A DNA stretch of 64,000 nt from Escherichia phage vB_EcoM_EC001, in the sequence record MN445185.1, one strand, 5' to 3'. Under the pieces are notes generated by a model, which saw only the letters and a list, made by a program, of their open reading frames with translations, made no database searches and was not told where the DNA came from. Positions 1 to 64,000 of this stretch are shown here, piece after piece (position 1 is the stretch's first letter; every line of letters starts with the position of its first letter). A program made the position numbers and the translations under genes.

Positions 1-1
1 C

Positions 2-643
2 GATCGCTATAACCCACGCTGGACATTCTATCTCAATGCCAGTCACCCGGATACTGGGTCACGTCTGGAACTCTTTAAAGAGATTTACGACTTCACGATT
101 CGTATCTGGCTTCCCCACGAATTGAATGCTACCCAGGTAGAAATCTGCCGTGCTCTAGGCGAGTATGCACCACGCAAGTCTAAGCTACTGATTACTAACT
201 ATCAGGGTGAGAAAGAGTGGACGAAGAACCAGTTCTACGTCGGCATGGTAGAGACTCTGCGCCTGGATAAAACCGGTCGTGAGTTCTCCAGTATCTCGTC
301 GATGTACACGAACTATTTGGGTTGTATTGATGCATCCAACCAAGGACGTGGTTCATATCCGATTAACCTGAAAGGGTTGAAGTGGGGTGGTCCTTCCGAG
401 CAGCGTCTTACCGACGGCTTTGGTCCGGGCAACTTCCCCGAAACTCATGACCGCGCTAATAACCCTGCGGTACACCGTGCGATCGTAACGGGGTTGTATA
501 ACTCGCCAACACCAACCAATCCGGGGGTGCTGGTCGATCGTAAGAAACTGCCAATGGGAGATTCGCAGATTGACAGGATGATACGTAACATCCATCGCTG
601 TGAAGGTTTTGAATTAGTGCGTCCAATTCGGGAGGATAAATAA
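2..643 (+). CDS. hypothetical protein, 5'-truncated by window edge
   Basis: Frame open from nt 2 to TAA 641-643 with no stop; stop overlaps next start (TAATG). Confidence 0.6.
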   Translation, partial: DRYNPRWTFYLNASHPDTGSRLELFKEIYDFTIRIWLPHELNATQVEICRALGEYAPRKSKLLITNYQGEKEWTKNQFYVGMVETLRLDKTGREFSSISSMYTNYLGCIDASNQGRGSYPINLKGLKWGGPSEQRLTDGFGPGNFPETHDRANNPAVHRAIVTGLYNSPTPTNPGVLVDRKKLPMGDSQIDRMIRNIHRCEGFELVRPIREDK

Positions 644-2748
644 TGGCGGGTCGTTCTGTACACGTGCGTGATTTGCGTATGCTTAACTCTGATCAGGTGT
701 GGAAACTACGCGGGCGTTATTACGTGACATTCGACGATGGTAAGTCGTTGGAAATGTCTAGTCGCCACATCAAACTCAGCTGGCCGTATTGGGGTGTGTC
801 GCGTCTGTATCCGCAGGTGCCCACTCCATCGACCATGGCGTATCGTCCAGGTCAGGTAGCAACAGATGACCTGCATCTGGACTTTATGTCGGAAGCAGCG
901 GTACTGGCCCGTAAAGCAGGTGTCGACCTTGCTGAAACGCGTTATATCCTGAGTCAACATGTCTACGCCGATGCGTTCAACATGACAGTGAAGAACCTGC
1001 TGTCCTATTGCACGACAATCGACTTTGATACGATGATGGAGATCTACGACCATCCGAACTTCGAACTCATCCGTCAGTGGGAAGTGCAATATCCTACTGG
1101 CTACGATGAAGATGGTCGGGATATGGTTGAAGAAGCGTACAAGCTTATCGAGAAAATCTTCAAAGACCCTGCGCTACGGTATAACCCGGTCGTGATGTCG
1201 GTACTGGATGGTACTGTGAAGATGAACCAGGTACTGCAAGCCTTCGTGCGTGGTAAAACGTCAGAAATTGACTCACGTGTATACACCAATCAGGTGTGGG
1301 AAGGCTTCTTTACCGGAATGCATTCGGTTATTTCGCGTTTGAAAGAATCTGGTGCAACTTCACGTTCCCACTTGTACAACACTGACAAGATTGCCGAAGC
1401 AGAATACGCCTCACGTAAACTGCAGCTGGCAGCAAACGTACTGATGTATTTCACGTACGACGACTGCGGTACAACTCACGCACACCGCTACACGTTTAAG
1501 GATACGCAGCTGGATGAGCGTGCCTATAAAGCGATGGTGGGGATGCGTTATCGTTTAGAAGGTGATAATGGTCCGTGGTTGAGATTTGAGAAAGGTGGAT
1601 ACGCAGACCTGGTTGGCAAACCGCTGGTCTTCCGTAGTGCCATGACCTGTAAAGAGATGGCGAATCAGTCCATCTGTGCGACCTGTATGGGGGATTTGAT
1701 TTATAACCTCTCTGAAGGTACGTCACCAGGTCATCTGGCATCCACGTCCATCTCGGAAAAGGGTACACAGGGAATTCTCTCTACCAAGCACCTTGACTTC
1801 TTGCGTTATCTGCTCAACCTGGTACTCACCCCACGTATGCGTGAGTATATGACCGAATACAAACATAACTCTCTGAAAGGGTTGTGCTTGCTGCCAAAAC
1901 CACAGCGTGGGAATTGGTCAGAATACGAGTTGGTTGTTACCGACAAAGTTTATTCGGAGCTGAGCCAGATTGCGTATCATGAAGATCTCGATGCAATTGA
2001 TGAAACGGCATTACCAGAAATCACCGACTTAACTTTCCAACGTCGTTTAGAAGATGGGCAGATAATCGCTGCGGATTCTATCGATGTGCGAATGGGTGTT
2101 TGTGGGAACTTCTCTAAACCGTTCCTGCACTACTTCTTGAAACAACGAGCGAACATTCGTATCGAGAAGAAGACGGTTCAGATTCCTTTGAAAGGATGGA
2201 ACCCGAAACACCCGGTCCTGGTCTACACCAACCGTTCTGAATCGATGGCGGAGTTCGTAGCCGGCTTAGAAACCAAGCTCCGTTCGATTGCTGCCGATAA
2301 GAACGAAGACATTGTGGAAATCATCAACACAGCCTCGACTGTGAAGCTGAACAAGAAACAAGGTCGTGTGAAACCGGTGACGTTGGTTGAAATGGGTGGT
2401 GCTACAGAGAAACAGTGTACTTATGCGTTGATGGACACGTTTAAGTATATCCAGCGTAAGCTGAGTGGTATACCGATGACGCACATTGCGATTATGTTGG
2501 CGATATCTCGTGTAGAGTCGCCAACCAATCCGTTCCCGGCAGTAGGATTTGACAGTGAGGATTCTACTAATGCCACCGGGAAACGGTTTGTCGATCACAA
2601 CACGCTCATTAGTTTGCGCTCGGCAATTCCGATGTTGTTGTTTGAAGGACAGCAGGGGAATATCGATCGCGTTGGTTTTTATACCGAGTACAAAATCCCG
2701 GCATCGTTGTACGATGACCTAGGAGCCGCTGTGGTAATTGAGTTGTAA
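643..2748 (+). CDS. hypothetical protein (701 aa)
   Basis: Long ORF, GGAGGA SD at 631-636, translationally coupled to upstream ORF, followed by intrinsic terminator; no motif recognised. Confidence 0.8.
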   Translation: MAGRSVHVRDLRMLNSDQVWKLRGRYYVTFDDGKSLEMSSRHIKLSWPYWGVSRLYPQVPTPSTMAYRPGQVATDDLHLDFMSEAAVLARKAGVDLAETRYILSQHVYADAFNMTVKNLLSYCTTIDFDTMMEIYDHPNFELIRQWEVQYPTGYDEDGRDMVEEAYKLIEKIFKDPALRYNPVVMSVLDGTVKMNQVLQAFVRGKTSEIDSRVYTNQVWEGFFTGMHSVISRLKESGATSRSHLYNTDKIAEAEYASRKLQLAANVLMYFTYDDCGTTHAHRYTFKDTQLDERAYKAMVGMRYRLEGDNGPWLRFEKGGYADLVGKPLVFRSAMTCKEMANQSICATCMGDLIYNLSEGTSPGHLASTSISEKGTQGILSTKHLDFLRYLLNLVLTPRMREYMTEYKHNSLKGLCLLPKPQRGNWSEYELVVTDKVYSELSQIAYHEDLDAIDETALPEITDLTFQRRLEDGQIIAADSIDVRMGVCGNFSKPFLHYFLKQRANIRIEKKTVQIPLKGWNPKHPVLVYTNRSESMAEFVAGLETKLRSIAADKNEDIVEIINTASTVKLNKKQGRVKPVTLVEMGGATEKQCTYALMDTFKYIQRKLSGIPMTHIAIMLAISRVESPTNPFPAVGFDSEDSTNATGKRFVDHNTLISLRSAIPMLLFEGQQGNIDRVGFYTEYKIPASLYDDLGAAVVIEL

Positions 2749-2751
2749 ACC

Positions 2752-2777
2752 GAGGGGCCTTGCGCCCCTCTTTTTTT
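2752..2777 (+). terminator. rho-independent terminator
   Basis: GC stem GAGGGGC/GCCCCTC followed by T7 run, directly after stop 2746-2748. Confidence 0.8.
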
Positions 2778-2794
2778 GTGCGAAGAGGGGCAGC

Positions 2795-5539
2795 ATGGTA
2801 GAAATTCAAATGACTTACACGAGTATGGGGGTACGGGTTGAAGTCCCTATCCGCCAGGCTGAAAGGGCCATACTCGCGTGGGCCGAAGAGAATATGCACG
2901 CCCCAAAGATGGGCAAGCAACATGGACGAATAACTACGGAACGCGGTGACGCGTACTACGCCCACATTCCGTCTTTAAGGACGTTCATTTTCCATAAAGT
3001 GTTCGCTGAGAAGATTAAACATATCCTCCAACGAGCAGCAATTGAATATGCTTTTCAGTACAAGCTTACAGAGCACCATCCTGAGCGAGGAACACCTTAC
3101 TGCTGTACATTTGATAACTACGGCTTCTCGATGGTAGAAAGCGATCCGGAGTCGCGTTTCTACTATCAGAACGAGGTTGTGGATGCAGCGTCCGATCCAA
3201 ACCGACCACAGACAATCTTTGCCATTCAGACAGGGAGAGGAAAATGCTGTGCTCATGGTACGCGTGTGCGTGTACCGGGTGGTTGGAAGAACATTGAGGA
3301 TATACAGCTAGGTGATTACGTTACGGGGCGTGACGGAAAACCAGCAATGGTCTCTGGAGTGTTCCCACAGGGTGTGGTTGACCTGTATCAGGTGACGTTT
3401 TGGGATGGTAGGAGTGTTGACGTATGTGGCGAGCACTTGTGGCAAAGCTACTACGTTAATACCACCGAGAATCGTCGCTGGGGTGTACGTGATACCCTAG
3501 AGATGAAACGTTTAATTTCGATGCCTAATCCACGGGTATACATCCCATTACCAGAACCAGAGGAAATGCCAGCTAAGGATTTTGTCATTCATCCGTATTT
3601 ACTCGGTATCCTCTTGGGTGATGGCTCCCTATCGATGCCTGGTGTTTTATACACCAAAGGCGATGTGGAGATTCGTGACCGTGTTGCTGAGGTCATGCCC
3701 GCTGGACATGCAATCCATGATTCATCGTACAGCGATGGGATAACGAAGTGCATCTCTTGTCCCGGCGGTGTTAACCTTGTCCGCAGAGAGCTTGAGCGGT
3801 TAGGGTTAATTGGCTGCAGGTCTTGGGAAAAGTTCATACCTGGAGATTACTTCGAAACGTCCATCGAACAACGGTGGGAGTTGTTGCGTGGCTTGATGGA
3901 TACTGACGGTACTGTGGATAAGGATGGTGGTACGCCTTCTTTCTGTTCCACCAGTAAAGAATTGGCTTTAGGTGTTCAGGAACTTGTGCGGTCTTTAGGA
4001 GGGATTGCAACACTACGCGAGAAACGTCCGTTCTTCACACACAACGGCGAACGTCGTGAAGGTCGTTTGGCTTATAACGTCTCCATCCGCCACAAAACAC
4101 CATCGAAACTGTTCCACCTTCCAAGGAAGAAAGAACTGTGTCGTGATAACGGACAATACACCGATATACTGAAACTCCGTGTTAAGTCTATCGAACCCAT
4201 TGGTCGTGATCTTGCCACGTGTATTCGTGTCGAGAACGACGATGCGTTGTTTGTGGTGGACAAGTGGATCGTTACGCACAACACCAAGACCTGTATGAAG
4301 TCGATGGTTAAACGGGGAACCCGTACCGCATTGATTCACCGTCCGTCGTACGTTCCCAAATGGCTGTTTGACGTCTGTGATGATGAAACAGGACTTCGTA
4401 TACTTCGTGACGAGGTGTTAGTTTGTACAGGCGTACAGGCGATTTACGACGCGCTGGAGATGGGTAAGTCGGGAGAGCTAGATAGTCGTGGTATTAAGGT
4501 AATAATCCTCCCCACGGTCTCTCTACAGCGTTTCCTGAAGGAGTACATTAACACTGCTGCGACTAACCCTGTGGACCTGGATACGTTTTATGATGTTCTG
4601 GGTGTGGGTCTGGTGGCGATGGATGAGGTGCACGAGCATTTTCACCTCGTTTACATGGCTGGTATAATGTTGAACCCTCCGGCATCGATAGAGATGTCTG
4701 CAACCCTTAAGCCGGGTAGCAGTAAAGCCTTTATCGCGGAGCGGTATTTAGAACGTTTCCCAATGGAGTACCGAATCAGTATTCCAATCATTCCGGTGGT
4801 TGACGTGAAGGCGTTGTACTATCGACTGGATGATAAGAAGTTTGCGTGGTGGGCGTCGAAGATGACGCCGTATAACCACAAGCTCTTCGAAGGGAAGCTG
4901 ATTAAAGAGAACTTGCATTTAGAATACGCGAACATGATCTGGGATGTGGTTGAGAAATCGTTCCTTAAACGGTATCAACCTGGCCAAAAATGTTTGATAC
5001 TCTTTGCTACGGTAGCGATGTGTGAGTTCTTTACCGAGTATGTGAAAGATAAGTTATCGCGTGACCCTGTATTCCATCCGTTGATGGTGGCGAAATATAA
5101 TGCAGGCGATTCGTATGACGACTTTATCCAAGCAGACTTCTCTATCTCCACACCGGGGAAAGCGGGGACTGCGGTCGATAAACCTGGGTTGGTACACATG
5201 TACATTTCAACCCCGGTAGAAGACCAGCAACTGAACGAACAGATGGCCGGTCGTCCACGTAAGATTCTCCACAACGAATGGGGTGAAATAGACCCAACGG
5301 TGTGGTTATTCCATGCGTATAACGTACCGAAGCATTGCAATTACCTGAATGCCCGCCAGAAATCACTCAAGGATGTCGTATTGTCGTTCCGTATCGCGAC
5401 ATCCCCCTACGTTGTAAGGAAATCACATGCTCACTCCGCCGCGTCCAGCAGAGCCGCTGCCACCCTACATCGGAATGACTTTAGCAAGTTTTCTCGAAAA
5501 CGTTCTAAAGGCGTATCCCGGCGTAGAAGACGTCGCTAA
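2795..5539 (+). CDS. SF2 DExH-box helicase interrupted by an intein (914 codons, about 568 aa after splicing)
   Basis: Motif I AIQTGRGK|T restored after intein removal, motif II VAMDEVHE, motif III MSATL, motif VI QMAGRPRK; ATG 2795 with GAGGGG SD; the track start 2738 is a TTG inside the upstream gene. Confidence 0.75.
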   Translation: MVEIQMTYTSMGVRVEVPIRQAERAILAWAEENMHAPKMGKQHGRITTERGDAYYAHIPSLRTFIFHKVFAEKIKHILQRAAIEYAFQYKLTEHHPERGTPYCCTFDNYGFSMVESDPESRFYYQNEVVDAASDPNRPQTIFAIQTGRGKCCAHGTRVRVPGGWKNIEDIQLGDYVTGRDGKPAMVSGVFPQGVVDLYQVTFWDGRSVDVCGEHLWQSYYVNTTENRRWGVRDTLEMKRLISMPNPRVYIPLPEPEEMPAKDFVIHPYLLGILLGDGSLSMPGVLYTKGDVEIRDRVAEVMPAGHAIHDSSYSDGITKCISCPGGVNLVRRELERLGLIGCRSWEKFIPGDYFETSIEQRWELLRGLMDTDGTVDKDGGTPSFCSTSKELALGVQELVRSLGGIATLREKRPFFTHNGERREGRLAYNVSIRHKTPSKLFHLPRKKELCRDNGQYTDILKLRVKSIEPIGRDLATCIRVENDDALFVVDKWIVTHNTKTCMKSMVKRGTRTALIHRPSYVPKWLFDVCDDETGLRILRDEVLVCTGVQAIYDALEMGKSGELDSRGIKVIILPTVSLQRFLKEYINTAATNPVDLDTFYDVLGVGLVAMDEVHEHFHLVYMAGIMLNPPASIEMSATLKPGSSKAFIAERYLERFPMEYRISIPIIPVVDVKALYYRLDDKKFAWWASKMTPYNHKLFEGKLIKENLHLEYANMIWDVVEKSFLKRYQPGQKCLILFATVAMCEFFTEYVKDKLSRDPVFHPLMVAKYNAGDSYDDFIQADFSISTPGKAGTAVDKPGLVHMYISTPVEDQQLNEQMAGRPRKILHNEWGEIDPTVWLFHAYNVPKHCNYLNARQKSLKDVVLSFRIATSPYVVRKSHAHSAASSRAAATLHRNDFSKFSRKRSKGVSRRRRRR
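3245..4282 (+). mobile_element. intein with LAGLIDADG homing-endonuclease domain (346 aa)
   Basis: In-frame insert begins with Cys right after GRGK, ends VTHN followed by Thr; two LAGLIDADG-type motifs LLGILLGDGSL and LLRGLMDTDGTV. Confidence 0.75.
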
Positions 5540-5810
5540 GAAACTCTGCACCGACGCCACTATCAACCAAGCGTTTCATTACTACATGGTCACTGAACAT
5601 TACAGTGGCCTGTTCCTTAACCAACGCGGGTTGACGTATTACGTCACCCGCACGTCAAGTATCCGTAACACTTCGTCGTACGAGCTTTATACGTACGTGT
5701 TGTGGAATGAGAACCCGGCCGGTAGTGTCGATCAGAATCCAAAGATGGCTTATCGTCTTTACTCTGAAAAATGGCACGATTGGGTGACTGTTCCACACGA
5801 TGCAAGTTAA
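5427..5810 (+). CDS. hypothetical protein (127 aa)
   Basis: ATG 5427 with AAGGA SD 6 nt upstream; overlaps helicase 3' end by 113 nt in another frame; alternative start ATG 5475. Confidence 0.55.
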   Translation: MLTPPRPAEPLPPYIGMTLASFLENVLKAYPGVEDVAKKLCTDATINQAFHYYMVTEHYSGLFLNQRGLTYYVTRTSSIRNTSSYELYTYVLWNENPAGSVDQNPKMAYRLYSEKWHDWVTVPHDAS

Positions 5811-5818
5811 TCACGTTT

Positions 5819-5843
5819 TGGGTGTATATTGTGTATACACCCA
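5819..5843. other. perfect 10-bp-stem inverted repeat (TGGGTGTATA/TATACACCCA), loop TTGTG
   Basis: Read directly; intergenic, no U-tract after it. Confidence 0.6.
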
Positions 5844-5870
5844 ACCCCTAATTTCAAAAGGATTATTACG

Positions 5871-6491
5871 ATGAGTCGTCGCAAAAAGAAACCCGCTTAT
5901 AACCCACGTAAAGACGCCCGCGATTTCGTCAAGGCGATGATGCAGTCTGTGTTGAAAAAACAAGCTGTGTTTATCGAAAGTACCGAATTCCTGTCAGGCA
6001 GAATTGATCGGGAGCGTGAAGTAACTGAAGCCATTACGCACGAAGAGCTGAAAGCCTTTACGTTGAAAGCGCTGGATGAAGCACAGGCGGCTTTCCTTGG
6101 CATGTGTCAGCAAGGCAAAGAGCTGTTCGGTAAACTGATTGTTGAGGCAGATGCTAAGGCTGTGCCGGTGTTTGACATGCTGAACGATAACAGCAAAACG
6201 TGGAAAGAAATCAAAGACCAGTTCCACGTCGACCACACCGAACTGTCCCTGATTGACCAGCGGGCAAACATGCTTGCGATGGATATTCAGGGCACCAGTA
6301 TCGAAATCTTCTCCACGTATAACGCGAAAGTGAAGTTCGTGAAGCAGGCGCTGAATAACGGGCATACCGTGGAACAAGCCGAAGTTCTGTTGGCTGAAGC
6401 TCTGGCTAATAATTCGAAGGAACTCCCTAAAAACGCCATCGTCGATCACAACGACGTTGTAGTAGAAACCGAGGAAGCGGCACATGTCTGA
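5871..6491 (+). CDS. hypothetical protein (206 aa)
   Basis: ATG 5871 preceded by AAAGGA; the track start 5829 is a TTG inside the palindrome. Confidence 0.7.
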   Translation: MSRRKKKPAYNPRKDARDFVKAMMQSVLKKQAVFIESTEFLSGRIDREREVTEAITHEELKAFTLKALDEAQAAFLGMCQQGKELFGKLIVEADAKAVPVFDMLNDNSKTWKEIKDQFHVDHTELSLIDQRANMLAMDIQGTSIEIFSTYNAKVKFVKQALNNGHTVEQAEVLLAEALANNSKELPKNAIVDHNDVVVETEEAAHV

Positions 6492-8454
6492 GATCCAAGA
6501 TCAGCGTCCGGGTAATGCCCGTCGCCCTAATCCCGACCAGCCAGCCCCTGTGGCGGCTGCTACCCAACAAGAGATGATTCTTCCGACCGTGCCTGATGAC
6601 GCGACCTCGGATGCAATCATCATGGCTATTAAACAAGCCAATCCCGATTTTTCTTTTGCCCGTGCAGAAGAAGTTTATCACCAACACTATCATCGTCCGG
6701 AGCCTAAGCTTGAGCGTCCGACGTTTGTAGAAGAGGCGTTGCCTGAACCTGCTGCACCTGTACCACCGGCACCTCAGACTTTTGCTGAACAGGTGCAGGA
6801 GCACCTACATCGTGCCCCGGAACCGGTAGTAGAGAAAGCGCCTACGGTAGAACCTGCTCCGCAGCCAAAAGCTCCGGAAGCGGTTGCACCGGCACAGCCG
6901 GCTGTAAAAGAAATGGAAGATGCAGCACCGAAGGTTCCGGAACAACAACAGATGCGTGAGATTGACTTCGGTAATACCCATTTAGCTGAAACCGCCGAAA
7001 TGGGTGAAGATGAAGCCGATCGTATTCTGACACAGTCGAAGATGTTGATTGGTCTGAAACAAGACCCTAACATCATTGCAGACTCCCTGCAAAAGTTCCT
7101 CGGTAATATTAAACGTTCACCGAAAGACGGCCGGCTGCTATTCGAAAGCCCTGAACAGCAACAGGTTTACGACGACATCTATCGTGCTTTGAACATGACC
7201 CCGCCACGTCTACAGGACGGCGTACCGGCATTCGCGGGTGCACTGGACCGTGGTGATACCGCTTGGGAACAGCGTGTGATGTTGCCGGACGGCAAGGCAT
7301 CTGGTGCTATTGCACCGCGTGACAATATGCACACTGGCGCGCTGGCTGCCTTACGTCGTGTACGTAAGTCGGGTATTCCGAACATGGTTTGGTTGCCGGC
7401 CACAGGTATCTACGTGGGCTTCCGCGCACCGCACGAACGTGACCTTTGTGACTTCGACATGCGTCTAACGCTGGAAACTGCGACCATCGGTATGCAGACC
7501 TACGGATTGATGCTGTCGTCGTCTTCTGGCGTGTACATGCGCCACATGGTTGAATTCGCACTTCAGTTTGTTACCGAAGCAACCATCGATTGTGCGGGTA
7601 ACGATCTGCGTACGGTGCTGTTGGATACCATTGATCTGGCTGACTACTGGCTGGTTATTCTGGGTCCGTTGCAGGCGAAGTGGCCGTCTGGTATTCCATG
7701 GACGCTGATGTGTGGCGAAGACGGTTGCAACCAGCAGGAAGATGTGAAGCTGAACATCGCGCGTTGTATCCGTTTCGGTTCCGGACTGTTTAGCGACCTG
7801 CAGAAACAACTGTGGGCACGTCAACGCGGTACTGAGCGTCCAGTGATTTCTATTGCAGAACAGCGCGAATATATCGCGGCGCATCAGGTTGATCCGTCCT
7901 CGGTATTTGAATACCACGACGTGCGTGTTGAATTTGGCCGTTCCACCCTGGGTAGCTTCTTTGACTCCACCGAGAAGTGGATTGAAGACGTTAACGCGTC
8001 AACTACGGCAGCGCTGTCTGAATTTGCTACCGAGCGTGAACGTGAATCCCATATGCGTTTAACTGCGGAAGCCCGTCGCTTAACGCGTTACGCTCACATG
8101 GTGAAGTCTATCACTGTTAATGAGCAACGTGAAGTAAACGGTGAAATGCAGGTTATCCCACAAACTGAAACCGACACAGCGAAAATCGTTGAGATGCTGG
8201 AAGAGCTGTCTTCCGACCGTATCTACGTTGGTCAGTTTGAAAACGCGATTGCTGAATACAACGAACGTACACGTTTAGCGGTATTCGGTTACATGGGTAA
8301 ACGCTGCCCGGCGTGTGGTAAAACACACGGCGAGAAAGACGGTCTGTATCGCGGTATTGTTACCATCAGTCCGGACAGGGTTTTTTTCGTGCTCTCTCGA
8401 GTGGTGTCCGAGATTCAGAAATTCTTGCTGGATCAATACGCCGATATTGGCTAG
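6484..8454 (+). CDS. hypothetical protein with Pro/Ala-rich N-terminal low-complexity region (656 aa)
   Basis: Long ORF, start overlaps upstream stop (ATGTCTGA); C-terminal CPACGK motif. Confidence 0.8.
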   Translation: MSEIQDQRPGNARRPNPDQPAPVAAATQQEMILPTVPDDATSDAIIMAIKQANPDFSFARAEEVYHQHYHRPEPKLERPTFVEEALPEPAAPVPPAPQTFAEQVQEHLHRAPEPVVEKAPTVEPAPQPKAPEAVAPAQPAVKEMEDAAPKVPEQQQMREIDFGNTHLAETAEMGEDEADRILTQSKMLIGLKQDPNIIADSLQKFLGNIKRSPKDGRLLFESPEQQQVYDDIYRALNMTPPRLQDGVPAFAGALDRGDTAWEQRVMLPDGKASGAIAPRDNMHTGALAALRRVRKSGIPNMVWLPATGIYVGFRAPHERDLCDFDMRLTLETATIGMQTYGLMLSSSSGVYMRHMVEFALQFVTEATIDCAGNDLRTVLLDTIDLADYWLVILGPLQAKWPSGIPWTLMCGEDGCNQQEDVKLNIARCIRFGSGLFSDLQKQLWARQRGTERPVISIAEQREYIAAHQVDPSSVFEYHDVRVEFGRSTLGSFFDSTEKWIEDVNASTTAALSEFATERERESHMRLTAEARRLTRYAHMVKSITVNEQREVNGEMQVIPQTETDTAKIVEMLEELSSDRIYVGQFENAIAEYNERTRLAVFGYMGKRCPACGKTHGEKDGLYRGIVTISPDRVFFVLSRVVSEIQKFLLDQYADIG

Positions 8455-8498
8455 ACCAGGAAGACGTTCCGTCCGAGCAAATCATTACAACGCTCAAG

Positions 8499-8870
8499 AT
8501 GGATACCACCTCTCTCTTCAAGCAGCGTAGCACACGTCCTATTACGTATCAGGAAGCCCATAACGAGCTTCTGGAAGCGTATGACCGTACACTGGCTCTT
8601 AATACCGGCGACCATCAGGTAGGGTTGTCGGATTTTGAAAACCCGGTATACGGTAGTCTTTACGATATCTGGTACGCCACTTACTTACGTGAAGAGGTCG
8701 GTGAAAACTACCGGATGTCGATAGACGAGTTCCTCGACCGTCCCCGCTGGCAGATACTGCTGATGCTCGACAATATCCGTCGTCGCAAAGCGATTATCGC
8801 CAAAGCCGGCGAACAGGTGGCAGGTGAACGTGCGCTAAAGGAGCTGGAGAAAGATCTGACGGGACATTAA
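8499..8870 (+). CDS. hypothetical protein (123 aa)
   Basis: ORF followed by strong terminator; weak SD. Confidence 0.65.
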   Translation: MDTTSLFKQRSTRPITYQEAHNELLEAYDRTLALNTGDHQVGLSDFENPVYGSLYDIWYATYLREEVGENYRMSIDEFLDRPRWQILLMLDNIRRRKAIIAKAGEQVAGERALKELEKDLTGH

Positions 8871-8878
8871 TAGAAATT

Positions 8879-8908
8879 CGGGGCTTCGGCCCCGTTTTCT
8901 TTTTTTTA
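8879..8908 (+). terminator. rho-independent terminator
   Basis: CGGGGC-TTCG-GCCCCG hairpin then T-rich run. Confidence 0.8.
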
Positions 8909-8923
8909 TTCGCCTTGGTATGA

Positions 8924-9808
8924 ATGCCCTTTTCACTATGGAACAGAGCCATGATTGATATTTATACCGACTATGCGGCTGTATTGACAGTCAACCGTCA
9001 CGAAGGTCGTGCAGCACCGATGCTAGATTTAGTGACGCTCGGTATGGATTACGGTTACGATGTGGCGTTATCCGATGTTTATAGCAACCCGTTGTCTGAC
9101 CCCGCGGACGAAACTGTCCGTCTGGAATCCATTATCGTGAAGGTAGCGGTTGGATTAGGCAACCGCCTCGGTATCGGACTTAATCCACAAATCGTCTTCC
9201 AGAAACCGAAAGAAACCGTACGTATCCTTCACGGTGTGTTGGAAGCCTTCGAGGAGTTCGAAGACAGTGATGCCCTTTACGGGATTGTCTCCTCTGGTGA
9301 GACACCAGAGTATATCCTGGAGAACATGTGTCGTTATGTTTACGGTGACGAAAACCTGCACTTCGAAGACCTGATTACTGTTGTCAGCCCACGCGTGCTT
9401 ACCGTGATGGAGAACTTCTTAGCAGCAGAGTCGTTGGAAAGCCAGAAACGAAACGGCGACGACGAGCGTCAACAGCGTATCGTCGCTTACTTGCGGTTGT
9501 TCCCTGAGAACCCGTCAGCGTTTGTCTTTATGAATCTGCCTGCTGAGCCAGACTTAACGGTGGTGCAGCAGTCGTTAGAGTTTCGCGTAGAGGACATTAG
9601 CGAAATTGATTTGCTGACGATGTATGCGGTGGGCTTATCGATTATTCCTCATGCGGAGTTTGATGGGGCTTACGGTGACTTAGAAAAGAACCTTGCCCTG
9701 TTGAACGTCGACAACGTCCCGCCTGGAGAAATCTTGCGGAAAGGATTGGAAGCGTTGAAAGTCATATACGCTAGTGGGGACGCGGAGGTAGATGATGAAC
9801 AAGATTGA
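8924..9808 (+). CDS. hypothetical protein (294 aa)
   Basis: Long ORF; start uncertain (ATG 8924 or 8951), neither with a strong SD. Confidence 0.7.
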   Translation: MPFSLWNRAMIDIYTDYAAVLTVNRHEGRAAPMLDLVTLGMDYGYDVALSDVYSNPLSDPADETVRLESIIVKVAVGLGNRLGIGLNPQIVFQKPKETVRILHGVLEAFEEFEDSDALYGIVSSGETPEYILENMCRYVYGDENLHFEDLITVVSPRVLTVMENFLAAESLESQKRNGDDERQQRIVAYLRLFPENPSAFVFMNLPAEPDLTVVQQSLEFRVEDISEIDLLTMYAVGLSIIPHAEFDGAYGDLEKNLALLNVDNVPPGEILRKGLEALKVIYASGDAEVDDEQD

Positions 9809-11090: not shown

Positions 11091-11103
11091 GGATTGTTTC
11101 CTC

Positions 11104-11604
11104 ATGACTAAGAAAGACACTACTACCCTTGACCCGCGTACAGAAGGCGTGGTCCGTGATAGCGCTTCTTACAGCAACGACGACCAATATCGTGTTAAAC
11201 TGATCACCACGATGCTCGATGAAGCAGGTAACAATGCCGGTCCACGCAAAGCATCTGGTACCCAGGCTGAGAAAGATGCGTATAATAAGCTGCATCACTC
11301 TTTCCGTGAGCTGTTTAAACTGCGCGGTCAGGCCTTCCTGGACGGTTTCTACGCCTTCGTAGAAGCGGCTAATAAGCATCGTAACGGTATTTTCTACGCA
11401 CCGGCTGCTAATAACCGTATCAGTGAGAACTTCCCGAATCGCGACGAGCGTGAAGTCTTCGTTATCTTTATTAACATGCTGATTCGTTACGCACGTTGCG
11501 CCGACAAAGGCCGTTTCCGTGATACCAACGATGTTGACCGTCTGGCTCGTCGCTTGAACGACCCGGACCTGCGTTCGCTGGTTATGCACGCCTTTGGCGG
11601 TTAA
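11104..11604 (+). CDS. hypothetical protein (166 aa)
   Basis: ATG 11104 just after upstream stop (the track start 11029 would overlap it); followed by terminator. Confidence 0.65.
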   Translation: MTKKDTTTLDPRTEGVVRDSASYSNDDQYRVKLITTMLDEAGNNAGPRKASGTQAEKDAYNKLHHSFRELFKLRGQAFLDGFYAFVEAANKHRNGIFYAPAANNRISENFPNRDEREVFVIFINMLIRYARCADKGRFRDTNDVDRLARRLNDPDLRSLVMHAFGG

Positions 11605-11613
11605 ATAAAAGTA

Positions 11614-11650: not shown

Positions 11651-11653
11651 GTT

Positions 11654-57444: not shown

Positions 57445-57834
57445 ATGATGCGTGCTGTATTAGCTGTGTTTATAATTTGCGTTACTACGTCAGTATACGC
57501 GTTTACTGTTCAGGACTTCCCGCAATACAAACCAATGTGGGAAACTGACGCACCTGTGAAATTCAGCGACAAAGATGAACCAGTCGTGTCGGTGGAGAAG
57601 GGTGAGTTTGCCGTGGTCAACTACGGACGTTCTGAACTGTGTCCAGGCGGTGGCTTTTATCTCATTAACACAAAGCGTAAGACGTACCAGCCGATAGATG
57701 CCGGTACGTGTTCGCCGAAAGTTAAAGCGACAATTGTCCCGTCAGTACGAACACATCGCAGCGTTAATACCCACCAGTTAACTTTTTGGGTAGGTAAAGA
57801 AATTTCCGCGCGGTATCCTTTGTACGATTACTAA
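57445..57834 (+). CDS. small secreted or periplasmic protein with N-terminal signal peptide (129 aa)
   Basis: MMRAVLAVFIICVTTSVYA then polar mature region. Confidence 0.6.
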   Translation: MMRAVLAVFIICVTTSVYAFTVQDFPQYKPMWETDAPVKFSDKDEPVVSVEKGEFAVVNYGRSELCPGGGFYLINTKRKTYQPIDAGTCSPKVKATIVPSVRTHRSVNTHQLTFWVGKEISARYPLYDY

Positions 57835-57842
57835 ACACAGCG

Positions 57843-57879
57843 TATAGGGGCTTCGGCCCCTATACTGTTTATTATTTTC
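57843..57879 (+). terminator. rho-independent terminator
   Basis: TATAGGGGC-TTCG-GCCCCTATA hairpin, T-rich tail interrupted. Confidence 0.6.
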
Positions 57880-57924
57880 CTGTGAAGTATTATGACCCCC
57901 TTAATCAAATACCAGGAGCGAGGC

Positions 57925-58542
57925 ATGTCTTTTGTTATTGACTTTAACCACCATCATAGTCAAACCTTGCTCGATTTAGTCAATGCTTTTAATGCTGAAA
58001 CCGTTTATACGCCCCTGACCACAGAACGTATCCGAGTGGAGAGTTATGGTCCACCGGAACCGGACGGTCGTGTAAGTGCTTTGCTGACTAATAAGAGTAA
58101 GCCAGATGACTATGTGGTTGTGCGTTACCGCAAATTGAGCTTAAATGATATAATCACGTTGAAGCCTGAACATCTCACATGGTTTGATTTGTCGAAAGGT
58201 AAACCGGCCGATTTGCGCGTATGGTCTGAACCTGCAATGGCCAGTTTTGAATCGGCGTGTGCAGAACGTGGCATCGTTGTAAGTAAGGCGTGGGAAAACC
58301 CCGCGCAATGCCACGTAGAGTACGACATCCCGACTGATCGATACGTCCTCGTCTATGAATGTGAATCATTTGTTTACGAATCGCGCACACGCATTACGCT
58401 ACCGTACCATATCGGCCAAGACTTAACCAAGACAACGTTGCCTGGTCTGGAATACGACTTGGCTGGTTTCTGGGGGCATAAGCTGTTAGAAGAAGTGACT
58501 ATCACGAAGCTTAACGGTTTTCGTTATCGTGAGTTTGTTTAA
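57925..58542 (+). CDS. hypothetical protein (205 aa)
   Basis: ATG 57925 has AGGAG 6 nt upstream; the track start 57892 has no SD. Confidence 0.65.
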   Translation: MSFVIDFNHHHSQTLLDLVNAFNAETVYTPLTTERIRVESYGPPEPDGRVSALLTNKSKPDDYVVVRYRKLSLNDIITLKPEHLTWFDLSKGKPADLRVWSEPAMASFESACAERGIVVSKAWENPAQCHVEYDIPTDRYVLVYECESFVYESRTRITLPYHIGQDLTKTTLPGLEYDLAGFWGHKLLEEVTITKLNGFRYREFV

Positions 58543-59536: not shown

Positions 59537-60670
59537 ATGTCGACGCTCGATTTAGATTTAGAAGTCCTGACTGACGACTACGATCGCCTGGTCGCACTCG
59601 AAGGTCTGGGAGTTAAGCCCGACTTCCCTGCGGTTTGCGCGATTCGTCAGCGTTGGTGCTTAACCGACGACGGTGAAGATATGTTGGTTGCTCGTGAATC
59701 GCGTGAAGCGATGGAGCGTGCTCAGTTTATGACTGATACCGACCCGCGAGCTGGTATCCATCGCGCAGCAGGGCGCATTACTGCGAAGGCTGTTAAAGGC
59801 GCTGGAAAGTTAGTGGGTGCTGGACTAGGTGCAACCGCAAAGGGTGCGGGTAAACTTTCGAAAAAGCTCGCATTACGCTTTTACGATTTCGCGGAAGCGC
59901 TAGCGAAAGAACAAGCCGACCGTTTGAAAGAAATAACTTCGAAAGCTGCTTTCATGGAACGTAAGCTCAATAAGCTTAAAACGCGAATGTCGCTGCTAGA
60001 TGAGCACAAAACACTCGCTGCAGTTGACGTTCACACTAGCAGCTGGACGTCTAAAATTTGTTTTGAAGATCGACCCGATTTTGAAGCGTGTGTTCGGTTT
60101 TCTAAACAAACAAATGCGTACGAAGGCGTCGTGCAAAAGTACACGGTTTACACACGCACTGCTCTGAAGAAAAGCAAAGCATTCGAAGGGCCGGGCTTAA
60201 AACAAATCAGCAAGTCCACAAACTGGGCAGTTAAGCGTGCCGCTGGATTGCTTGGCATCATCGATCCCTTTAAAAAGGTGGAAGCTTTTCCTGTTCCTGG
60301 AAATATCGTTGTGGTTGAGCACCATAGTGGTAAGATCAGTTGGGCAATTGCGCGTGACGGCGATTATGGTGAAACCATTAAATCGCTGGATATGCATCAG
60401 TGTGGGAAAGCAATAGAGGCTGTGGAAGCACTTATCAAATCTATTGCTGCGCGCGGAACAAAGAACCGTGTTGTAGGCTACACTGGTATCTACGAAGAAG
60501 TGGAAGCGATGAAGTCCGAGCTTAAGAACCTGGAAGGGGATGAGCTGAAAGAAGCCACTTTGCGCTACCGCAATGCAATGGCGATGGAAGACGCTTTTAC
60601 CACGGCATTGGTACGTGTGGCGGAGGGTCTAATGGAATGGACGAAGCAATCGCTGGCCGAGGTGAACTGA
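59537..60670 (+). CDS. hypothetical protein (377 aa)
   Basis: AAGGAG SD. Confidence 0.7.
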   Translation: MSTLDLDLEVLTDDYDRLVALEGLGVKPDFPAVCAIRQRWCLTDDGEDMLVARESREAMERAQFMTDTDPRAGIHRAAGRITAKAVKGAGKLVGAGLGATAKGAGKLSKKLALRFYDFAEALAKEQADRLKEITSKAAFMERKLNKLKTRMSLLDEHKTLAAVDVHTSSWTSKICFEDRPDFEACVRFSKQTNAYEGVVQKYTVYTRTALKKSKAFEGPGLKQISKSTNWAVKRAAGLLGIIDPFKKVEAFPVPGNIVVVEHHSGKISWAIARDGDYGETIKSLDMHQCGKAIEAVEALIKSIAARGTKNRVVGYTGIYEEVEAMKSELKNLEGDELKEATLRYRNAMAMEDAFTTALVRVAEGLMEWTKQSLAEVN

Positions 60671-61131
60671 TGAAGATTATTACCATAGTGGGGCCAGACA
60701 CGGCTAACGGCAGGAAATATTCCACAGATATCCTCGCGCTTTATAACGAGCTGGACAAAAGCGAAATAGAAAGCTATCGAAAAGAGACGGGTATTAATGT
60801 CCGTTTTACGCCGGCTAAATCGTTAGCCGAGCGCTTCCGGGGTCGTTTACTGGCGGTCGTGGACGACGGTGTCTTGTATGGCTTTGCGCAATACCGCACG
60901 ATGACTGAAGAGGGTGTGACGATGATGTCGGTATCCTCACTGGTCGTTAGCAGCAGCGCACGTGGTAAAGGTTACGGCACCGCGTTGATGGATGCGGTAA
61001 AGAAATCCGCAACGGAAAAAGGGTGTACAGTTGTTCACCTGTCCGTGAACGCCGGTAACGCTGCCGCGAAGTCGCTCTACGACAAAGCTGGCTTTAAGGT
61101 AGGTGCTTACCAGATGTATTGGAGGGTGTGA
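60670..61131 (+). CDS. GNAT family N-acetyltransferase, tandem paralog 1 (153 aa)
   Basis: Motif A ARGKGYGTALMDAV and motif B NAGNAAAKSLYDKAGF; TGATG coupling. Confidence 0.7.
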   Translation: MKIITIVGPDTANGRKYSTDILALYNELDKSEIESYRKETGINVRFTPAKSLAERFRGRLLAVVDDGVLYGFAQYRTMTEEGVTMMSVSSLVVSSSARGKGYGTALMDAVKKSATEKGCTVVHLSVNAGNAAAKSLYDKAGFKVGAYQMYWRV

Positions 61132-61595
61132 TGAAAATTGTTTTTGTCACCAAGCCCAACTCTCCGTATGGAAAGAAATACTACGCGGACTTGTTAGGAC
61201 TACACAACAAGTTATACGACGATCAGAAAATAAAACTTGCCGACTTAAACGGTCGTGAAGGGTTTAATCAAATCTCAAAACTGGAGGAGGTTTGGGGTGA
61301 AGGTACGCTGTGCGCTTGCGCCGTTGATGACCGTGGTGTGGCTGTTGGTTTCATCACCTTTGGCTACACCAAAAAGGGACAACGTTTCCTCTGGGTATAT
61401 AACTTTTTTGTAGATGAATCGGTTCGTTCACAAGGCGTTGGCCATGAACTGATCGAAGCCGTAGAGAACTATGGCAAATCAAAAGGCTGCGCATGGATGC
61501 AGCTTAACGTGCTCGGTAATAACGACCGTGCTATTGCGTTTTATGAACGTTTCGGATTCCGAACTGAATACCAGGATATGGTAAAGGAGCTTTAA
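61131..61595 (+). CDS. GNAT family N-acetyltransferase, tandem paralog 2 (154 aa)
   Basis: Motif A RSQGVGHELIEAV and motif B NNDRAIAFYERFGF; GGAGGG SD; N-terminus parallels paralog 1. Confidence 0.7.
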   Translation: MKIVFVTKPNSPYGKKYYADLLGLHNKLYDDQKIKLADLNGREGFNQISKLEEVWGEGTLCACAVDDRGVAVGFITFGYTKKGQRFLWVYNFFVDESVRSQGVGHELIEAVENYGKSKGCAWMQLNVLGNNDRAIAFYERFGFRTEYQDMVKEL

Positions 61596-61596
61596 C

Positions 61597-62205
61597 ATGG
61601 TGGCTGTCCGCAGCGTGCCACATCAGACTGGCTCGCGATATACTTTTTGTGTAAAGCGTTTCGGGGCAAGAAATCGCCCTGGTTGGAAGGTGGTACGTGC
61701 GATGGGACAGTTCTGGCAATTACCACCTGGCACGTTAAAATATTTTTCAGTAGACAGAATAACCCGGTTCTTAAACGCGGCTGACCCAAGTCAACGCTCC
61801 AGTTTTATGGCAGGGATCGTTTGTCGTCCCGATGGGAAAACACGCGATGCAACCACTCGTGGAATCTACTGGACAGGACAGAACGCGTTTCAGGTTGGCT
61901 TACCTTGCCTGAAGTGTGAAGTGACACCGTTTAATGGTCCCTACGCCGATGCGCACTTCACCGGTATCTTTGTGTCGTTCCCAGACGACCCGTCTTTAAA
62001 CTACTTTTTATCAGTGGACAAAGACGTCAGTATTGATACCTTTTACAAATACTTGTTGTTTTACAGCCGGTATATCCGCGTGACTCCTGTGCATGAAGAT
62101 TGGTATTATAAAAATCCCTTGAACTATGGGAGGGACAGGAGACTAGAAGGATGTTCTATCGAGAGCTTCAACTCTGTACCGCAGCGCTCCATGGCGCTAA
62201 TGTGA
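61597..62205 (+). CDS. hypothetical protein (202 aa)
   Basis: AAGGAG SD. Confidence 0.65.
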   Translation: MVAVRSVPHQTGSRYTFCVKRFGARNRPGWKVVRAMGQFWQLPPGTLKYFSVDRITRFLNAADPSQRSSFMAGIVCRPDGKTRDATTRGIYWTGQNAFQVGLPCLKCEVTPFNGPYADAHFTGIFVSFPDDPSLNYFLSVDKDVSIDTFYKYLLFYSRYIRVTPVHEDWYYKNPLNYGRDRRLEGCSIESFNSVPQRSMALM

Positions 62206-62522
62206 GCAAGAACGGGGACCTGGAAGACGTCGCGCAAGCCTTACGGGCTGTGTCGGAGGTTGACCAGGTCGACATCGACGCTAAGTATTTAGGCGGCGGT
62301 GTAAAGCGTATTCAGTTGACCGTGCGAGCCAAACATGGCAGCTGCTCGTTACATTTTCGAGTCAGTGCGGATTATTTCCTGGTACTGCGCTCCACATTCA
62401 GTCACGATGGTCGGACTCACCGGGTTCGGTGGATGCACGACATTACTAAATTTGGCTACCCGCTTGCAGAACAACGTAAAGTCGTACATGACTTTATGGC
62501 TGCAGTCGTTGCGGGGTTTTAA
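62151..62522 (+). CDS. hypothetical protein (123 aa)
   Basis: AGAAGG SD; overlaps upstream gene by 55 nt. Confidence 0.55.
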   Translation: MFYRELQLCTAALHGANVSKNGDLEDVAQALRAVSEVDQVDIDAKYLGGGVKRIQLTVRAKHGSCSLHFRVSADYFLVLRSTFSHDGRTHRVRWMHDITKFGYPLAEQRKVVHDFMAAVVAGF

Positions 62523-62534
62523 GGGGAGACTGTG

Positions 62535-63131
62535 ATGTCTGAGATGATTCTCGATTCGCTGTTTTTGATTACGGTTGCAAACATCAATAAAAACGGCAAT
62601 CTTCCAGAATACGTAGACATAAGTCGTCATGGCTTTAAGCGTCGTTATCAAATCGGTAAGGTACTAGAGATTGCCTGCTTAGTAACGAACATGCGTAGAC
62701 CGGTGGAAGGCTGTAGCGTTAAACATGCACAGATGATACTCGGGCGTGCTATTTCAGAAGTACGTCGTAAGCGTCGTCGTGCACCGTATCGCTTTTATCC
62801 TAACTCCACCAAACAGGTGGTCGGTGAGGGGGAAGGTGTGGTTGATTTGCGTGAGGCCAGTTGTAATGTAGGCGGTATTGCACGTGACTGGTTAATGAGC
62901 ATTATCAGTAAGCATCCACGTACACCTACGCCGCAAGAAGGACAGGCGGTACTCGCACTTATGCGTAAGACCCATTTGGTGATTACTGATACACCAAACC
63001 AGGCAGCACGAATGCAGCACTATTTGGCATGTCGTGGCTTCACCACACTTGCAGTACCTTCTGAATACACAGCTGATATTAAACTTCCGCCAGTCCCAGA
63101 TTGGTCTGAACCGACAGTTGATCATCAGTGA
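62535..63131 (+). CDS. hypothetical protein with basic RRKRRR segment (198 aa)
   Basis: AAGGGGA SD; followed by terminator. Confidence 0.65.
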   Translation: MSEMILDSLFLITVANINKNGNLPEYVDISRHGFKRRYQIGKVLEIACLVTNMRRPVEGCSVKHAQMILGRAISEVRRKRRRAPYRFYPNSTKQVVGEGEGVVDLREASCNVGGIARDWLMSIISKHPRTPTPQEGQAVLALMRKTHLVITDTPNQAARMQHYLACRGFTTLAVPSEYTADIKLPPVPDWSEPTVDHQ

Positions 63132-63137
63132 GTTATA

Positions 63138-63174
63138 CCCACTCCTTCGGGAGTGGGTCGACTCTATTTTTTTT
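63138..63174 (+). terminator. rho-independent terminator
   Basis: CCCACTCC-TTCG-GGAGTGGG hairpin, T8 run after an 8-nt gap. Confidence 0.55.
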
Positions 63175-63175
63175 G

Positions 63176-63197
63176 GATAGATGTTATCTTAGGGAGA
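63176..63197 (+). promoter_or_regulatory. phage promoter-like motif, class II (GATAGATGTTATCTTAGGGAGA)
   Basis: 21/23 identical to 42671..42693; abuts the terminator T-run; 95 nt upstream of ATG 63292. Confidence 0.55.
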
Positions 63198-63221
63198 CGT
63201 GCAAAAATTACGTTTCATCCT

Positions 63222-63233
63222 TAGCATATGCTA
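63222..63233. other. perfect 12-bp palindrome TAGCATATGCTA in the leader
   Basis: Read directly; between the promoter motif and ATG 63292. Confidence 0.5.
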
Positions 63234-63291
63234 GAAGCCGTTGTGAGTCGGTTAAAACTCACCAACTTAAACTTAAAAGCGAGTAAACAAA

Positions 63292-64000
63292 ATGTCAAAA
63301 CTCAATAAAGCAGCAACCAAAGAATGGCTTTCCGTACCTACCGCAGATGGTCAGTATCGCTACGTATTCACGTATGACGAAAATGACCTGACGGCAAAAG
63401 GTATTCCGCACATGTTAAGTCACAAACTGATTAACAGCGTGACCGGTGCCACCTTAGTAGGTTCCGGCGGAAGGACAATCTTTTGTGCCCCCAGTTGGGA
63501 TCAAACTGAACTGACCAAGAAAATGCTCGGTGAACTCCGGGCGGTTTCCGCACGTCTGTTCTTTAAGCTGATTGCCAGAAAACCGGCGCTATGGGATGCA
63601 TGGTCTCAACACAATCTCGAGGCATTGCGTGGGGAGTGTCTGAATTACGTATTGGTCGAAGAAGTGATTGATAACTTCTTCGCTAACGTGATGAAAACCG
63701 AACGACTGCGTAAGCCGAACACCGACGGTTATTCGTTTGTCTCCGTTAAGAGCAGCGAACTGATTCGGGGTGAGTTTGCAGGGCATGTCCTTTCGGTAAC
63801 TCGGAACCTGAGTTTCTTTGGCCAGCCTTTCAGTGAGCCAGTTGTTCAGGTAACTTATGATTTCCGTTTACCGTTTACTGTTCGGAATGAGTTTGACCCA
63901 GGTCAAGTTTCGTTGAAGTTTTTATATCCTCTCCAGTCATGGCCGTTATTGAAGAGGTTCTTAGCTGAGCCCCGTGTAGCTGCGGTGCTGCAAGCGTGGA
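63292..64000 (+). CDS. hypothetical protein, 3'-truncated by window edge (>=236 aa)
   Basis: ATG 63292; frame translated by hand to the window end with no stop; absent from the ORF track. Confidence 0.6.
   Translation, partial: MSKLNKAATKEWLSVPTADGQYRYVFTYDENDLTAKGIPHMLSHKLINSVTGATLVGSGGRTIFCAPSWDQTELTKKMLGELRAVSARLFFKLIARKPALWDAWSQHNLEALRGECLNYVLVEEVIDNFFANVMKTERLRKPNTDGYSFVSVKSSELIRGEFAGHVLSVTRNLSFFGQPFSEPVVQVTYDFRLPFTVRNEFDPGQVSLKFLYPLQSWPLLKRFLAEPRVAAVLQAW

Follow-up and report, generated by a model that had tools for sequence, protein, structure and literature searches.

A Seoulvirus segment of Escherichia phage vB_EcoM_EC001 with split polymerases, a helicase intein and a candidate early promoter

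Within the jumbo phage family Chimalliviridae, Salmonella phage SPN3US (NC_027402 / JN641803), the type species of the genus Seoulvirus, is an established genetic model, and its genetics and proteomics supply the functional assignments used here (PMC5105663, PMC10052503). The same family holds phiKZ, which combines its own type of capsid and internal head proteins with split non-virion and virion RNA polymerases (nvRNAP and vRNAP) and a prohead protease that cuts after S/A/G-x-E, as in the SPN3US group (PMC13282480). Here we compare with these phages a 64,000-nucleotide stretch of Escherichia phage vB_EcoM_EC001 (record MN445185.1), hereafter the window, whose first letter is position 1. An initial annotation, made from the letters alone, had judged it probably part of a phiKZ-like jumbo phage genome. 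We assign it, with a probability of about 0.97, to the interior of a ~240-kb lytic jumbo myovirus of the genus Seoulvirus (SPN3US-like) in the Chimalliviridae; its relationship to phiKZ, with which it shares the capsid and internal head protein types and both split polymerases, is at the level of the family only. The lineage is already known, with its capsid, ejection proteins, A-x-E processing and split polymerases all published, and the novelty of the window is low.

Placement among the jumbo phages

Megablast searches with positions 40000-48000 and 1-12000 against 50,697 phage records returned only Seoulvirus and related enterobacterial jumbo phages, led by SPN3US and its relatives at ~98% identity. 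The best protein and nucleotide matches were likewise Seoulvirus jumbo phages (SPN3US, Lh1B, JN03 and others; 240 kb), and the genomes of close relatives measure 233-243 kb. Aligned with SPN3US 29000-95000, the window is 97.6% identical over 61.7 kb (96.4% of its length) in four collinear blocks with full synteny; gene order is the same, and most proteins are 98-100% identical. In the practice of the International Committee on Taxonomy of Viruses, the genus threshold lies at ~70% nucleotide identity over the genome and the species threshold at 95%. NCBI taxonomy lists both Seoulvirus and Phikzvirus under Chimalliviridae, and the window matches the family-specific Pfam models PhiKZ_MCP, phiKZ_IP (twice), PhiKZ_gp91 and divDNAB. 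Identity to SPN3US, taxonomy, phiKZ-type models and split RNA polymerase (RNAP) pieces therefore all bear out the phiKZ-like assignment of the initial annotation.

Could the window instead come from Phikzvirus itself, as a close relative of phiKZ? Pfam models built on phiKZ proteins match it, and three of its RNAP pieces match the phiKZ nvRNAP structure. However, because those structure matches reach only E=1e-13 to 1e-39, the pieces are distant homologs, in line with the distant homology of the phiKZ proteins in general. No Pseudomonas phage occurs among the megablast matches, by which phiKZ shows no nucleotide similarity to the window; every Pseudomonas phage capsid match is below 60% amino acid identity, the Seoulvirus capsid being ~24% identical to that of phiKZ (PMC5105663); and the GC content of the window is 49%. 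The 97.6% identity to SPN3US, which places the window in Seoulvirus, already refutes an origin in Phikzvirus, to which we allow next to no probability.

The nuclear shell bears on a second alternative, a split-RNAP jumbo phage of the AR9/PBS1 kind, outside Chimalliviridae and forming no phage nucleus. SPN3US carries a chimallin candidate, a 617-residue open reading frame (ORF) at 15768-17621 of its genome, between the DNA polymerase and RNAP beta' genes, which is the expected syntenic locus (bioRxiv 10.1101/2024.03.27.586873). A published account describes it as a chimallin that has diverged strongly, with 10% identity to the 201phi2-1 protein, and also reports a nuclear-shell-like square lattice (PMC9365700); nucleus formation is listed for SPN3US (PMC13282480). 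The AR9/PBS1-like alternative draws on a promoter-like core in the window that resembles the AR9 early promoter (PMC5312081), and on chimallin being unconfirmed by sequence search and the tubulin signature not being found in the SPN3US genome; yet the window is 97.6% identical to SPN3US, and taxonomy puts Seoulvirus in Chimalliviridae. We consider this alternative just as improbable as the first. Within the window, the 656-residue gp39 ortholog (6484-8454) was considered as chimallin and rejected, since the literature and synteny put chimallin upstream of the window (PMC9365700); phmmer against PDB gave only a chance Cas12f match for it (E=0.21).

A third possibility is that the window belongs to a bacterial replicon, a prophage or large plasmid, and not to a lytic phage genome. 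One E. coli 'plasmid', NZ_CP173450.1 (221,873 bp), is indeed 77.8% identical over 700 nt to the region of the ejection protein gene gp53. Against this, no E. coli complete genome covered a 4-kb probe to 80% or more, ARAGORN found no tRNA genes in the window, protein family scans of the window found no integrase or plasmid-replication family, and the nearest relatives are isolated lytic phages (PMC10302289), which makes a bacterial origin extremely improbable. The plasmid match pairs window 24000-24699 with 100765-101465 of the record, which comes from a human E. coli isolate and probably represents a chimallivirus genome entered as a plasmid. Its match to the gp53 region indicates that chimallivirus-like replicons occur in bacterial assemblies.

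Several points weigh against the Seoulvirus assignment. A 64-kb internal window gives no genome size by itself, and chimallin, the catalytic beta' N-terminal RNAP piece, the terminase and the prohead protease lie outside it and are seen only in the close relative SPN3US, whose record also holds further RNAP pieces and the sheath. Because the SPN3US chimallin candidate had no match in PDB (phmmer) or Pfam, its identity rests on the published report (PMC9365700) and on synteny. The initial annotation had proposed a search for the tubulin-like PhuZ; the tubulin signature [SAG]GG[TS]G[SAT]G occurs in no frame of the SPN3US genome. PhuZ does not belong to the core of Chimalliviridae, however, and many chimallin-encoding phages lack it, including Erwinia phage vB_EamM_Asesino (PMC13282480), so its absence does not bear on family membership. 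The promoter and terminator roles discussed below are inferred from sequence and conservation, no Seoulvirus transcript mapping having been found in the literature. Finally, phage Lh1B differs from the window by 1333 substitutions.

Escherichia phage vB_EcoM_Lh1B (OK428535.1, 240,200 bp, Seoulvirus) is collinear at 32001-96000 with all 64,000 window positions, with zero indels and coding sequence coordinates that coincide exactly, and it shares with the window a helicase intein (100% amino acid identity), an extra GNAT gene and a divergent ORF at the right end. Its differences form a mosaic: 57445-58542 and 60637-64000 have none, and gp54 reaches 13%. Third codon positions account for ~74% of them; of the changed codons, 915 are synonymous and 252 non-synonymous; and SPN3US sides with Lh1B against the window at 483 sites. 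Although the Lh1B record has 280 scattered isolated N in the stretch matching the window, the third-position bias and the 483 agreements rule out random alteration of that record as the cause of the differences, and the substitutions look natural. We therefore regard the source of the window as an Lh1B-like Seoulvirus. Asesino (Erskinevirus) is more distant, syntenic with the window over the 42 kb compared at ~75% nucleotide identity, with a capsid protein 85.6% identical.

Split polymerases and head proteins with predicted cleavage sites

Taking gene coordinates from Lh1B, every one of which translates cleanly in the window, we count 66 genes, 61 on the plus strand and five on the minus strand, with 95.9% of the sequence coding, so the dense, mainly plus-strand layout first described is accurate. 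No Rfam family reached the gathering threshold in the window, and NCBIfam gave nothing useful for eight key window proteins.

The window encodes four pieces of split RNAPs, three non-virion and one virion. The 3' end of the gene for the C-terminal piece of nvRNAP beta, a homolog of phiKZ gp71-73, lies at 1-643 (plus strand; PDB 7ogp_C PHIKZ071, E=2.6e-13; PHROG 3295, E=2.5e-78; 100% amino acid identity to SPN3US). It is followed at 643-2748 (plus) by the C-terminal piece of nvRNAP beta', SPN3US gp35 and a homolog of phiKZ gp74 (PDB 7ogp_D PHIKZ074, E=8.9e-39, with a weak match to Pfam Rpb1_5). The N-terminal piece of nvRNAP beta, the gp77 ortholog at 43939-45717 (plus), is a homolog of phiKZ gp123 (PDB 7ogp_E PHIKZ123, E=3e-20); RefSeq labels it 'polymerase' only, and gp77 has been named the N-terminal fragment of nvRNAP beta (PMC5105663). 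The ortholog of SPN3US gp42 at 9795-11090 (plus; 99.3% amino acid identity; PHROG 2962, E=8e-176) is the predicted beta' piece of the vRNAP, with both the assignment and the virion location taken from mass spectrometry that found gp42 as a head-associated vRNAP beta' piece (PMC5105663). It matches the nvRNAP beta' piece weakly (E=0.013) and nothing in PDB by phmmer; the SPN3US annotation places other vRNAP pieces at 212-218 kb.

The initial annotation had found no RNAP subunit motif in the window. That search result stands, as D-x-D-G-D, including NADFDGD, occurs in none of the six frames, yet the window encodes RNAP pieces nonetheless. The motif is missing because the nvRNAP beta' N-terminal piece with the catalytic aspartates lies ~13 kb upstream of the window, at SPN3US 17704-19299 (7OGP chain A, E=5e-39). 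The search for split subunits, suggested at the outset for the rest of the genome, gave matches to chains C, D and E of 7OGP in the window itself and to chain A in SPN3US. Since the window itself encodes multisubunit RNAP pieces and its best matches are Seoulvirus phages, the outcome first named as fatal to a phiKZ-related interpretation, unrelated best matches combined with a lack of such genes, did not occur.

The stand-alone polymerase fragment noticed at the outset is likewise real. The SPN3US gp44 ortholog at 11654-13438 (minus) is the N-terminal piece of a split family-B DNA polymerase (PHROG 3011 'DNA polymerase', E=4e-251), and matches the N-terminal third of the general family-B model PHROG 262 weakly (E=2.5e-7); phmmer against PDB gave nothing useful. 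It holds the exonuclease half (ExoI YDVET, ExoII NHQFD, ExoIII YNMMD) together with motif A (DLTQAYPS), but lacks motifs B and C. Its partner lies outside the window, ~28 kb away on the opposite strand at SPN3US 11544-13823 (Pfam divDNApol, E=4.6e-284), and contains motif C (SDTDS) and no exonuclease motifs. The replicative polymerase is therefore, judged by these motifs, split into two genes between motifs A and B.

The 766-residue capsid candidate of the initial annotation, at 40290-42590 (plus), proved to be the major capsid protein, the ortholog of gp75. It matches Pfam PhiKZ_MCP (PF25620) at E=2.1e-225 over 634 of 635 model positions and is 99.9% identical to SPN3US gp75. The tandem A-x-E-bearing paralogs are internal head or ejection proteins of the phiKZ type, the gp53 ortholog (paralog A1) at 24038-25315 (plus; phiKZ_IP PF12699, E=5e-77) and the gp54 ortholog (paralog A2) at 25393-26652 (plus; PF12699, E=5e-54), which are 35% identical to each other (E=6e-58). 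Each carries nine A-x-E motifs. Protease cleavage sites are published for SPN3US gp53 and gp54 (PMC10052503), and with them coincide ARE-12 and AQE-125|GWKETLKDLF in the gp53 ortholog and AQE-124 and ARE-137|SLWEDIK in the gp54 ortholog. Together with the protein encoded at 59537-60670 (plus), these are the three densest window proteins in this motif; the third, also with nine motifs and at the highest density, is a weak phiKZ_IP relative whose match (E=4e-4) falls below the gathering score.

Three further head proteins have sites of the same kind. The gp45 ortholog at 13509-14861 (plus; 99.8% amino acid identity to SPN3US) has a site at ASE-20|S that matches the published 20-residue propeptide (PMC10052503), and the gp47 ortholog at 15317-17050 (plus; 99.7%), a known protease substrate (PMC10052503), has one at ALE-111|S. 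The portal protein, the gp81 ortholog at 48151-50895 (minus; 98.9%; PHROG 3004, head and packaging), carries AQE-254, matching the 254-residue propeptide (PMC10052503); the portal identity of gp81 comes from PMC5105663. By analogy with SPN3US, phiKZ and AR9, a prohead protease encoded elsewhere in the genome would trim the head proteins after A-x-E.

Among conserved genes, gp54 is the most divergent: its protein is 87% identical to that of SPN3US, and its nucleotide sequence differs by 13% from that of Lh1B. The propeptide hardly varies, but a central patch of the mature protein (~26023-26232, residues 211-280) is 43-77% identical among three phages. Over window 24000-28000, no phage record matches above 94%.

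Other virion genes include a PhiKZ gp91-like vertex-binding protein at 23424-23981 (plus; PF25618, E=4.9e-7, above the gathering score), a head-tail joining protein at 31622-32977 (plus; Phage_H_T_join_2, E=4.8e-61; H_T_assoc, E=8e-19) and two virion protein genes (986 and 419 residues) at 17094-21313 (minus; PHROG 3248; annotated as virion structural proteins in SPN3US). The second of these two, at 20054-21313 (minus), matches Pfam Phage_TTP_15 (PF23971, 'putative phage tail tube protein') at E=8e-184. We did not adopt the tail tube label, as SPN3US proteomics gives the tube as gp255, encoded elsewhere (PMC5105663), and the Pfam name may for that reason be wrong for this clade.

Promoter-like and terminator-like elements

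The initial annotation had pointed to promoter motifs containing TATATTAC, which Ceyssens et al. reportedly gave in 2014 as the phiKZ early-promoter consensus. As a literal string it occurs twice in the window against 1.4 expected, which is chance level, and we rejected its enrichment as evidence on its own. Both occurrences, however, lie in an identical 25-mer and belong to a longer element that is present in five copies. The degenerate 16-mer AGATAKATRTTAYCTW is matched five times (0.23 expected), each time on the plus strand in an intergenic stretch, and a position weight matrix scan gave five sites of about 30 bits or more (29.9-40.9) and none in shuffled sequences. The resulting 30-nt element has the consensus tttCAGATA(G/T)ATATTA(C/T)CTaGGTGAG.

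All five copies are on the plus strand. The first, at 26720-26749 (40.9 bits), contains TATATTAC and is intergenic, 45 nt upstream of the gene at 26795; the second, at 35838-35867 (40.9 bits), also contains it. Two copies, at 42665-42694 (37.1 bits) and 42863-42892 (37.2 bits), lie just upstream of gp76, the gene preceding that for nvRNAP beta-N, the latter heading the gp76/gp77 operon. The fifth is at 63169-63198 (29.9 bits). In SPN3US the sites number at least 16, again all plus-strand, and one of them lies 45 nt upstream of the nvRNAP beta-C gene. In Asesino, each of the four orthologous intergenic positions examined, those of the first four copies, carries the motif. At the second, a 19-nt core is invariant within a spacer whose flanks diverge, and a neighbouring terminator stem keeps its pairing through compensatory changes.

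The core has a parallel outside the family. In AR9, a Bacillus phage outside Chimalliviridae, the early promoter has been mapped experimentally as AAATATATATTAT-N6-G+1 (PMC5312081), and the window core, ATATATTA(Y)-N6-G, resembles it. Both share an extended AT-rich element, ATATATATTA(T/C), followed by N6 and then G (PMC5312081), whereas the flanking consensus of the predicted Seoulvirus motif (CAGATA...CTAGGTGAG) differs. Because of this parallel we tentatively read the copies as vRNAP early promoters, and rate it slightly better than an even bet that the 30-nt element serves this role in the Seoulvirus/Erskinevirus clade. We found no description of the element in the literature searched. If the work on SPN3US, phiKZ and AR9 carries over, the virion polymerase would start early transcription at the five copies and the non-virion polymerase would transcribe the structural genes.

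Some details of the motif and its surroundings stand apart. The G-type variant, AGATAGATATTATCT (for example at 42665-42694), includes the partial palindrome AGATA-N5-TATCT and has a weak score on the other strand as well; symmetry is less marked in the T-type variant, AGATATATATTACCT. At 35718-35811, three direct CC(C/T)TCTAAA repeats occur in 60 nt, with an inverted copy at 35813, and are not conserved in Asesino. The 16-nt block CGCGTTTGAGAGCGTT (35796-35811), ~30 nt upstream of a promoter-like motif, is unchanged in Asesino and is a possible regulatory site. Between the two copies that follow the capsid gene, the intergenic stretch 42591-42922 contains at 42726-42809 a 27-codon N-terminal remnant of a 232-residue gene that is intact in SPLA3 and most relatives; ~625 bp are deleted here in both the window and SPN3US. 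In Asesino the gene between the two motif copies is intact, so that each copy precedes a gene of its own, whereas the window keeps only the remnant.

On the same analogy, operons would be terminated by G+C-rich hairpins that mostly carry a UUCG tetraloop and have a U-run behind them. Among 37 perfect hairpins in the window with a 4-nt loop and a stem of at least 6 bp, 11 have the loop TTCG; all 11 are intergenic, at gene ends, with stems of 6-11 bp and T-rich tails. A broader scan, in which each strand was counted separately, gave 23 terminator-like sites between genes, and TTCG was their commonest loop by a wide margin. The 11 hairpins, with their G+C-rich stem, C(UUCG)G-type loop and U-run, are predicted intrinsic (factor-independent) terminators. 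On the plus strand, after plus-strand genes, they lie at 8879-8894 (6-bp stem, T-rich tail), 17060-17085 (11 bp, at a convergent junction with T-runs on both strands), 26664-26687 (10 bp), 30077-30092 (6 bp), 37777-37800 (10 bp), 42621-42646 (11 bp, after the capsid gene), 47427-47444 (7 bp), 57842-57865 (10 bp) and 63137-63158 (9 bp). The remaining two read on the minus strand, 3' of minus-strand genes: 37836-37857 (9 bp) downstream of the DnaB-like helicase gene and 48101-48124 (10 bp) after the portal gene. Both, like the TTCG-loop terminators in general, are conserved in Asesino. The claim that loop orientation tracks the transcribed strand therefore holds, weakly powered as it is by few minus-strand cases and by a convergent junction (17060-17085) that reads plus.

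A small plus-strand ORF at 37884-38030 sits between the minus-strand helicase gene and its terminator. It may not be a real gene, since in Asesino the equivalent hairpin follows the helicase gene directly. Compared with SPN3US, the region 37884-38175 is 225 bp shorter near window position 38000, the missing sequence lying between direct repeats of ~34 nt; of two tandem 48-codon ORFs, one is lost with it.

The helicase intein, variable loci and significance

An intein in a replication helicase had been proposed, and the intein is real, with Hint and LAGLIDADG domains; its host, however, is a superfamily 2 (SF2) DExH-type DNA helicase. The DnaB-like replicative helicase of the window, a divergent form at 38176-39738 (minus), is uninterrupted, matching Pfam divDNAB contiguously over residues 150-517 (E=1.2e-124). 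The intein-bearing gene, the SPN3US gp36 ortholog at 2795-5539 (plus; PHROG 16 DNA helicase, E=1.5e-57; DEVH box), encodes 914 residues, of which the exteins (1-150 and 497-914) align to the 568-residue intein-less SPN3US helicase. Within it, 3245-4282 (plus) encodes a class-1 intein of 346 residues with a LAGLIDADG homing endonuclease (LAGLIDADG_3 PF14528, E=1.3e-10; Hom_end_hint; Hom_end). It interrupts the Walker A motif (GxGK[TS]) between K and T of TGRGK|T, begins with CCAHG at C151 (Cys1), ends in VTHN496 with C-terminal His-Asn, and is followed by T497 (+1). Its N-terminus matches Hom_end_hint and Hint_2, and its two LAGLIDADG motifs are LLGILLGDGS and LLRGLMDTDGT. Relative to SPN3US the intein is an exact in-frame insertion of 1038 bp, whose excision leaves a 1707-nt gene of SPN3US length. 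Four Seoulvirus records have it (Lh1B, SPLA3, SPLA5c and JN03; 98-100%), and SPN3US and the other ~20 full-length records of the genus lack it; the relatives that come next, at 41-57% identity, occupy helicases of further jumbo phages, among them Erwinia Kwan, PhiPA3 and EL.

Around the insertion, 3065-4822 (plus) forms a divergent tract, ~180 nt upstream and ~540 nt downstream of the intein. Nucleotides 271-990 of the spliced gene (720 nt) are 58-86% identical to SPN3US, and the sequence outside them is 99-100% identical. The tract looks like a co-conversion tract, left by predicted homing of the intein out of a diverged donor allele. In SPLA3 (OR413581.1) and SPLA5c (OR413585.1), the ortholog of the intein-bearing helicase is labelled 'terminase large subunit'. 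PHROG terminase matches to the helicase all fall on residues 121-506, almost wholly within the intein (151-496), so the label is an intein artefact.

Other loci also set the window apart from SPN3US. Pfam finds GNAT domains in three window genes; one of them, an acetyltransferase gene at 60637-61131, is missing from SPN3US but shared with Lh1B, JN03 and phage 1252. With the GNAT gene next to it, at 61131-61595, it has only 35% identity and is therefore a diverged paralog, not a recent duplicate. The last ORF, 63292-64000, is cut by the window end; it is identical to that of Lh1B and 40% identical in amino acid sequence to its SPN3US counterpart, DNA similarity to SPN3US ending at 63273. On this comparison, the right-edge ORF is an allelic replacement. 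Elsewhere, dihydrofolate reductase is encoded at 28570-29121 (plus; DHFR_1, E=1e-46).

The main value of these results is one of calibration, in that a chimallivirus segment was recognised from sequence features alone, without tools; to a lineage with SPN3US as its model, the window adds little biology. Its by-products are modest: a candidate early promoter for the clade, a clean example of probable intein homing that shows what looks like a co-conversion tract, and a warning about automatic 'terminase large subunit' annotation of intein-bearing helicases. If the promoter reading is true, the way in which the sigma-less virion polymerase recognises promoters would be conserved among jumbo phages both within Chimalliviridae and beyond it, and the early regulon would be predictable from sequence alone, in the window including the nvRNAP beta-N operon and the dihydrofolate reductase operon.

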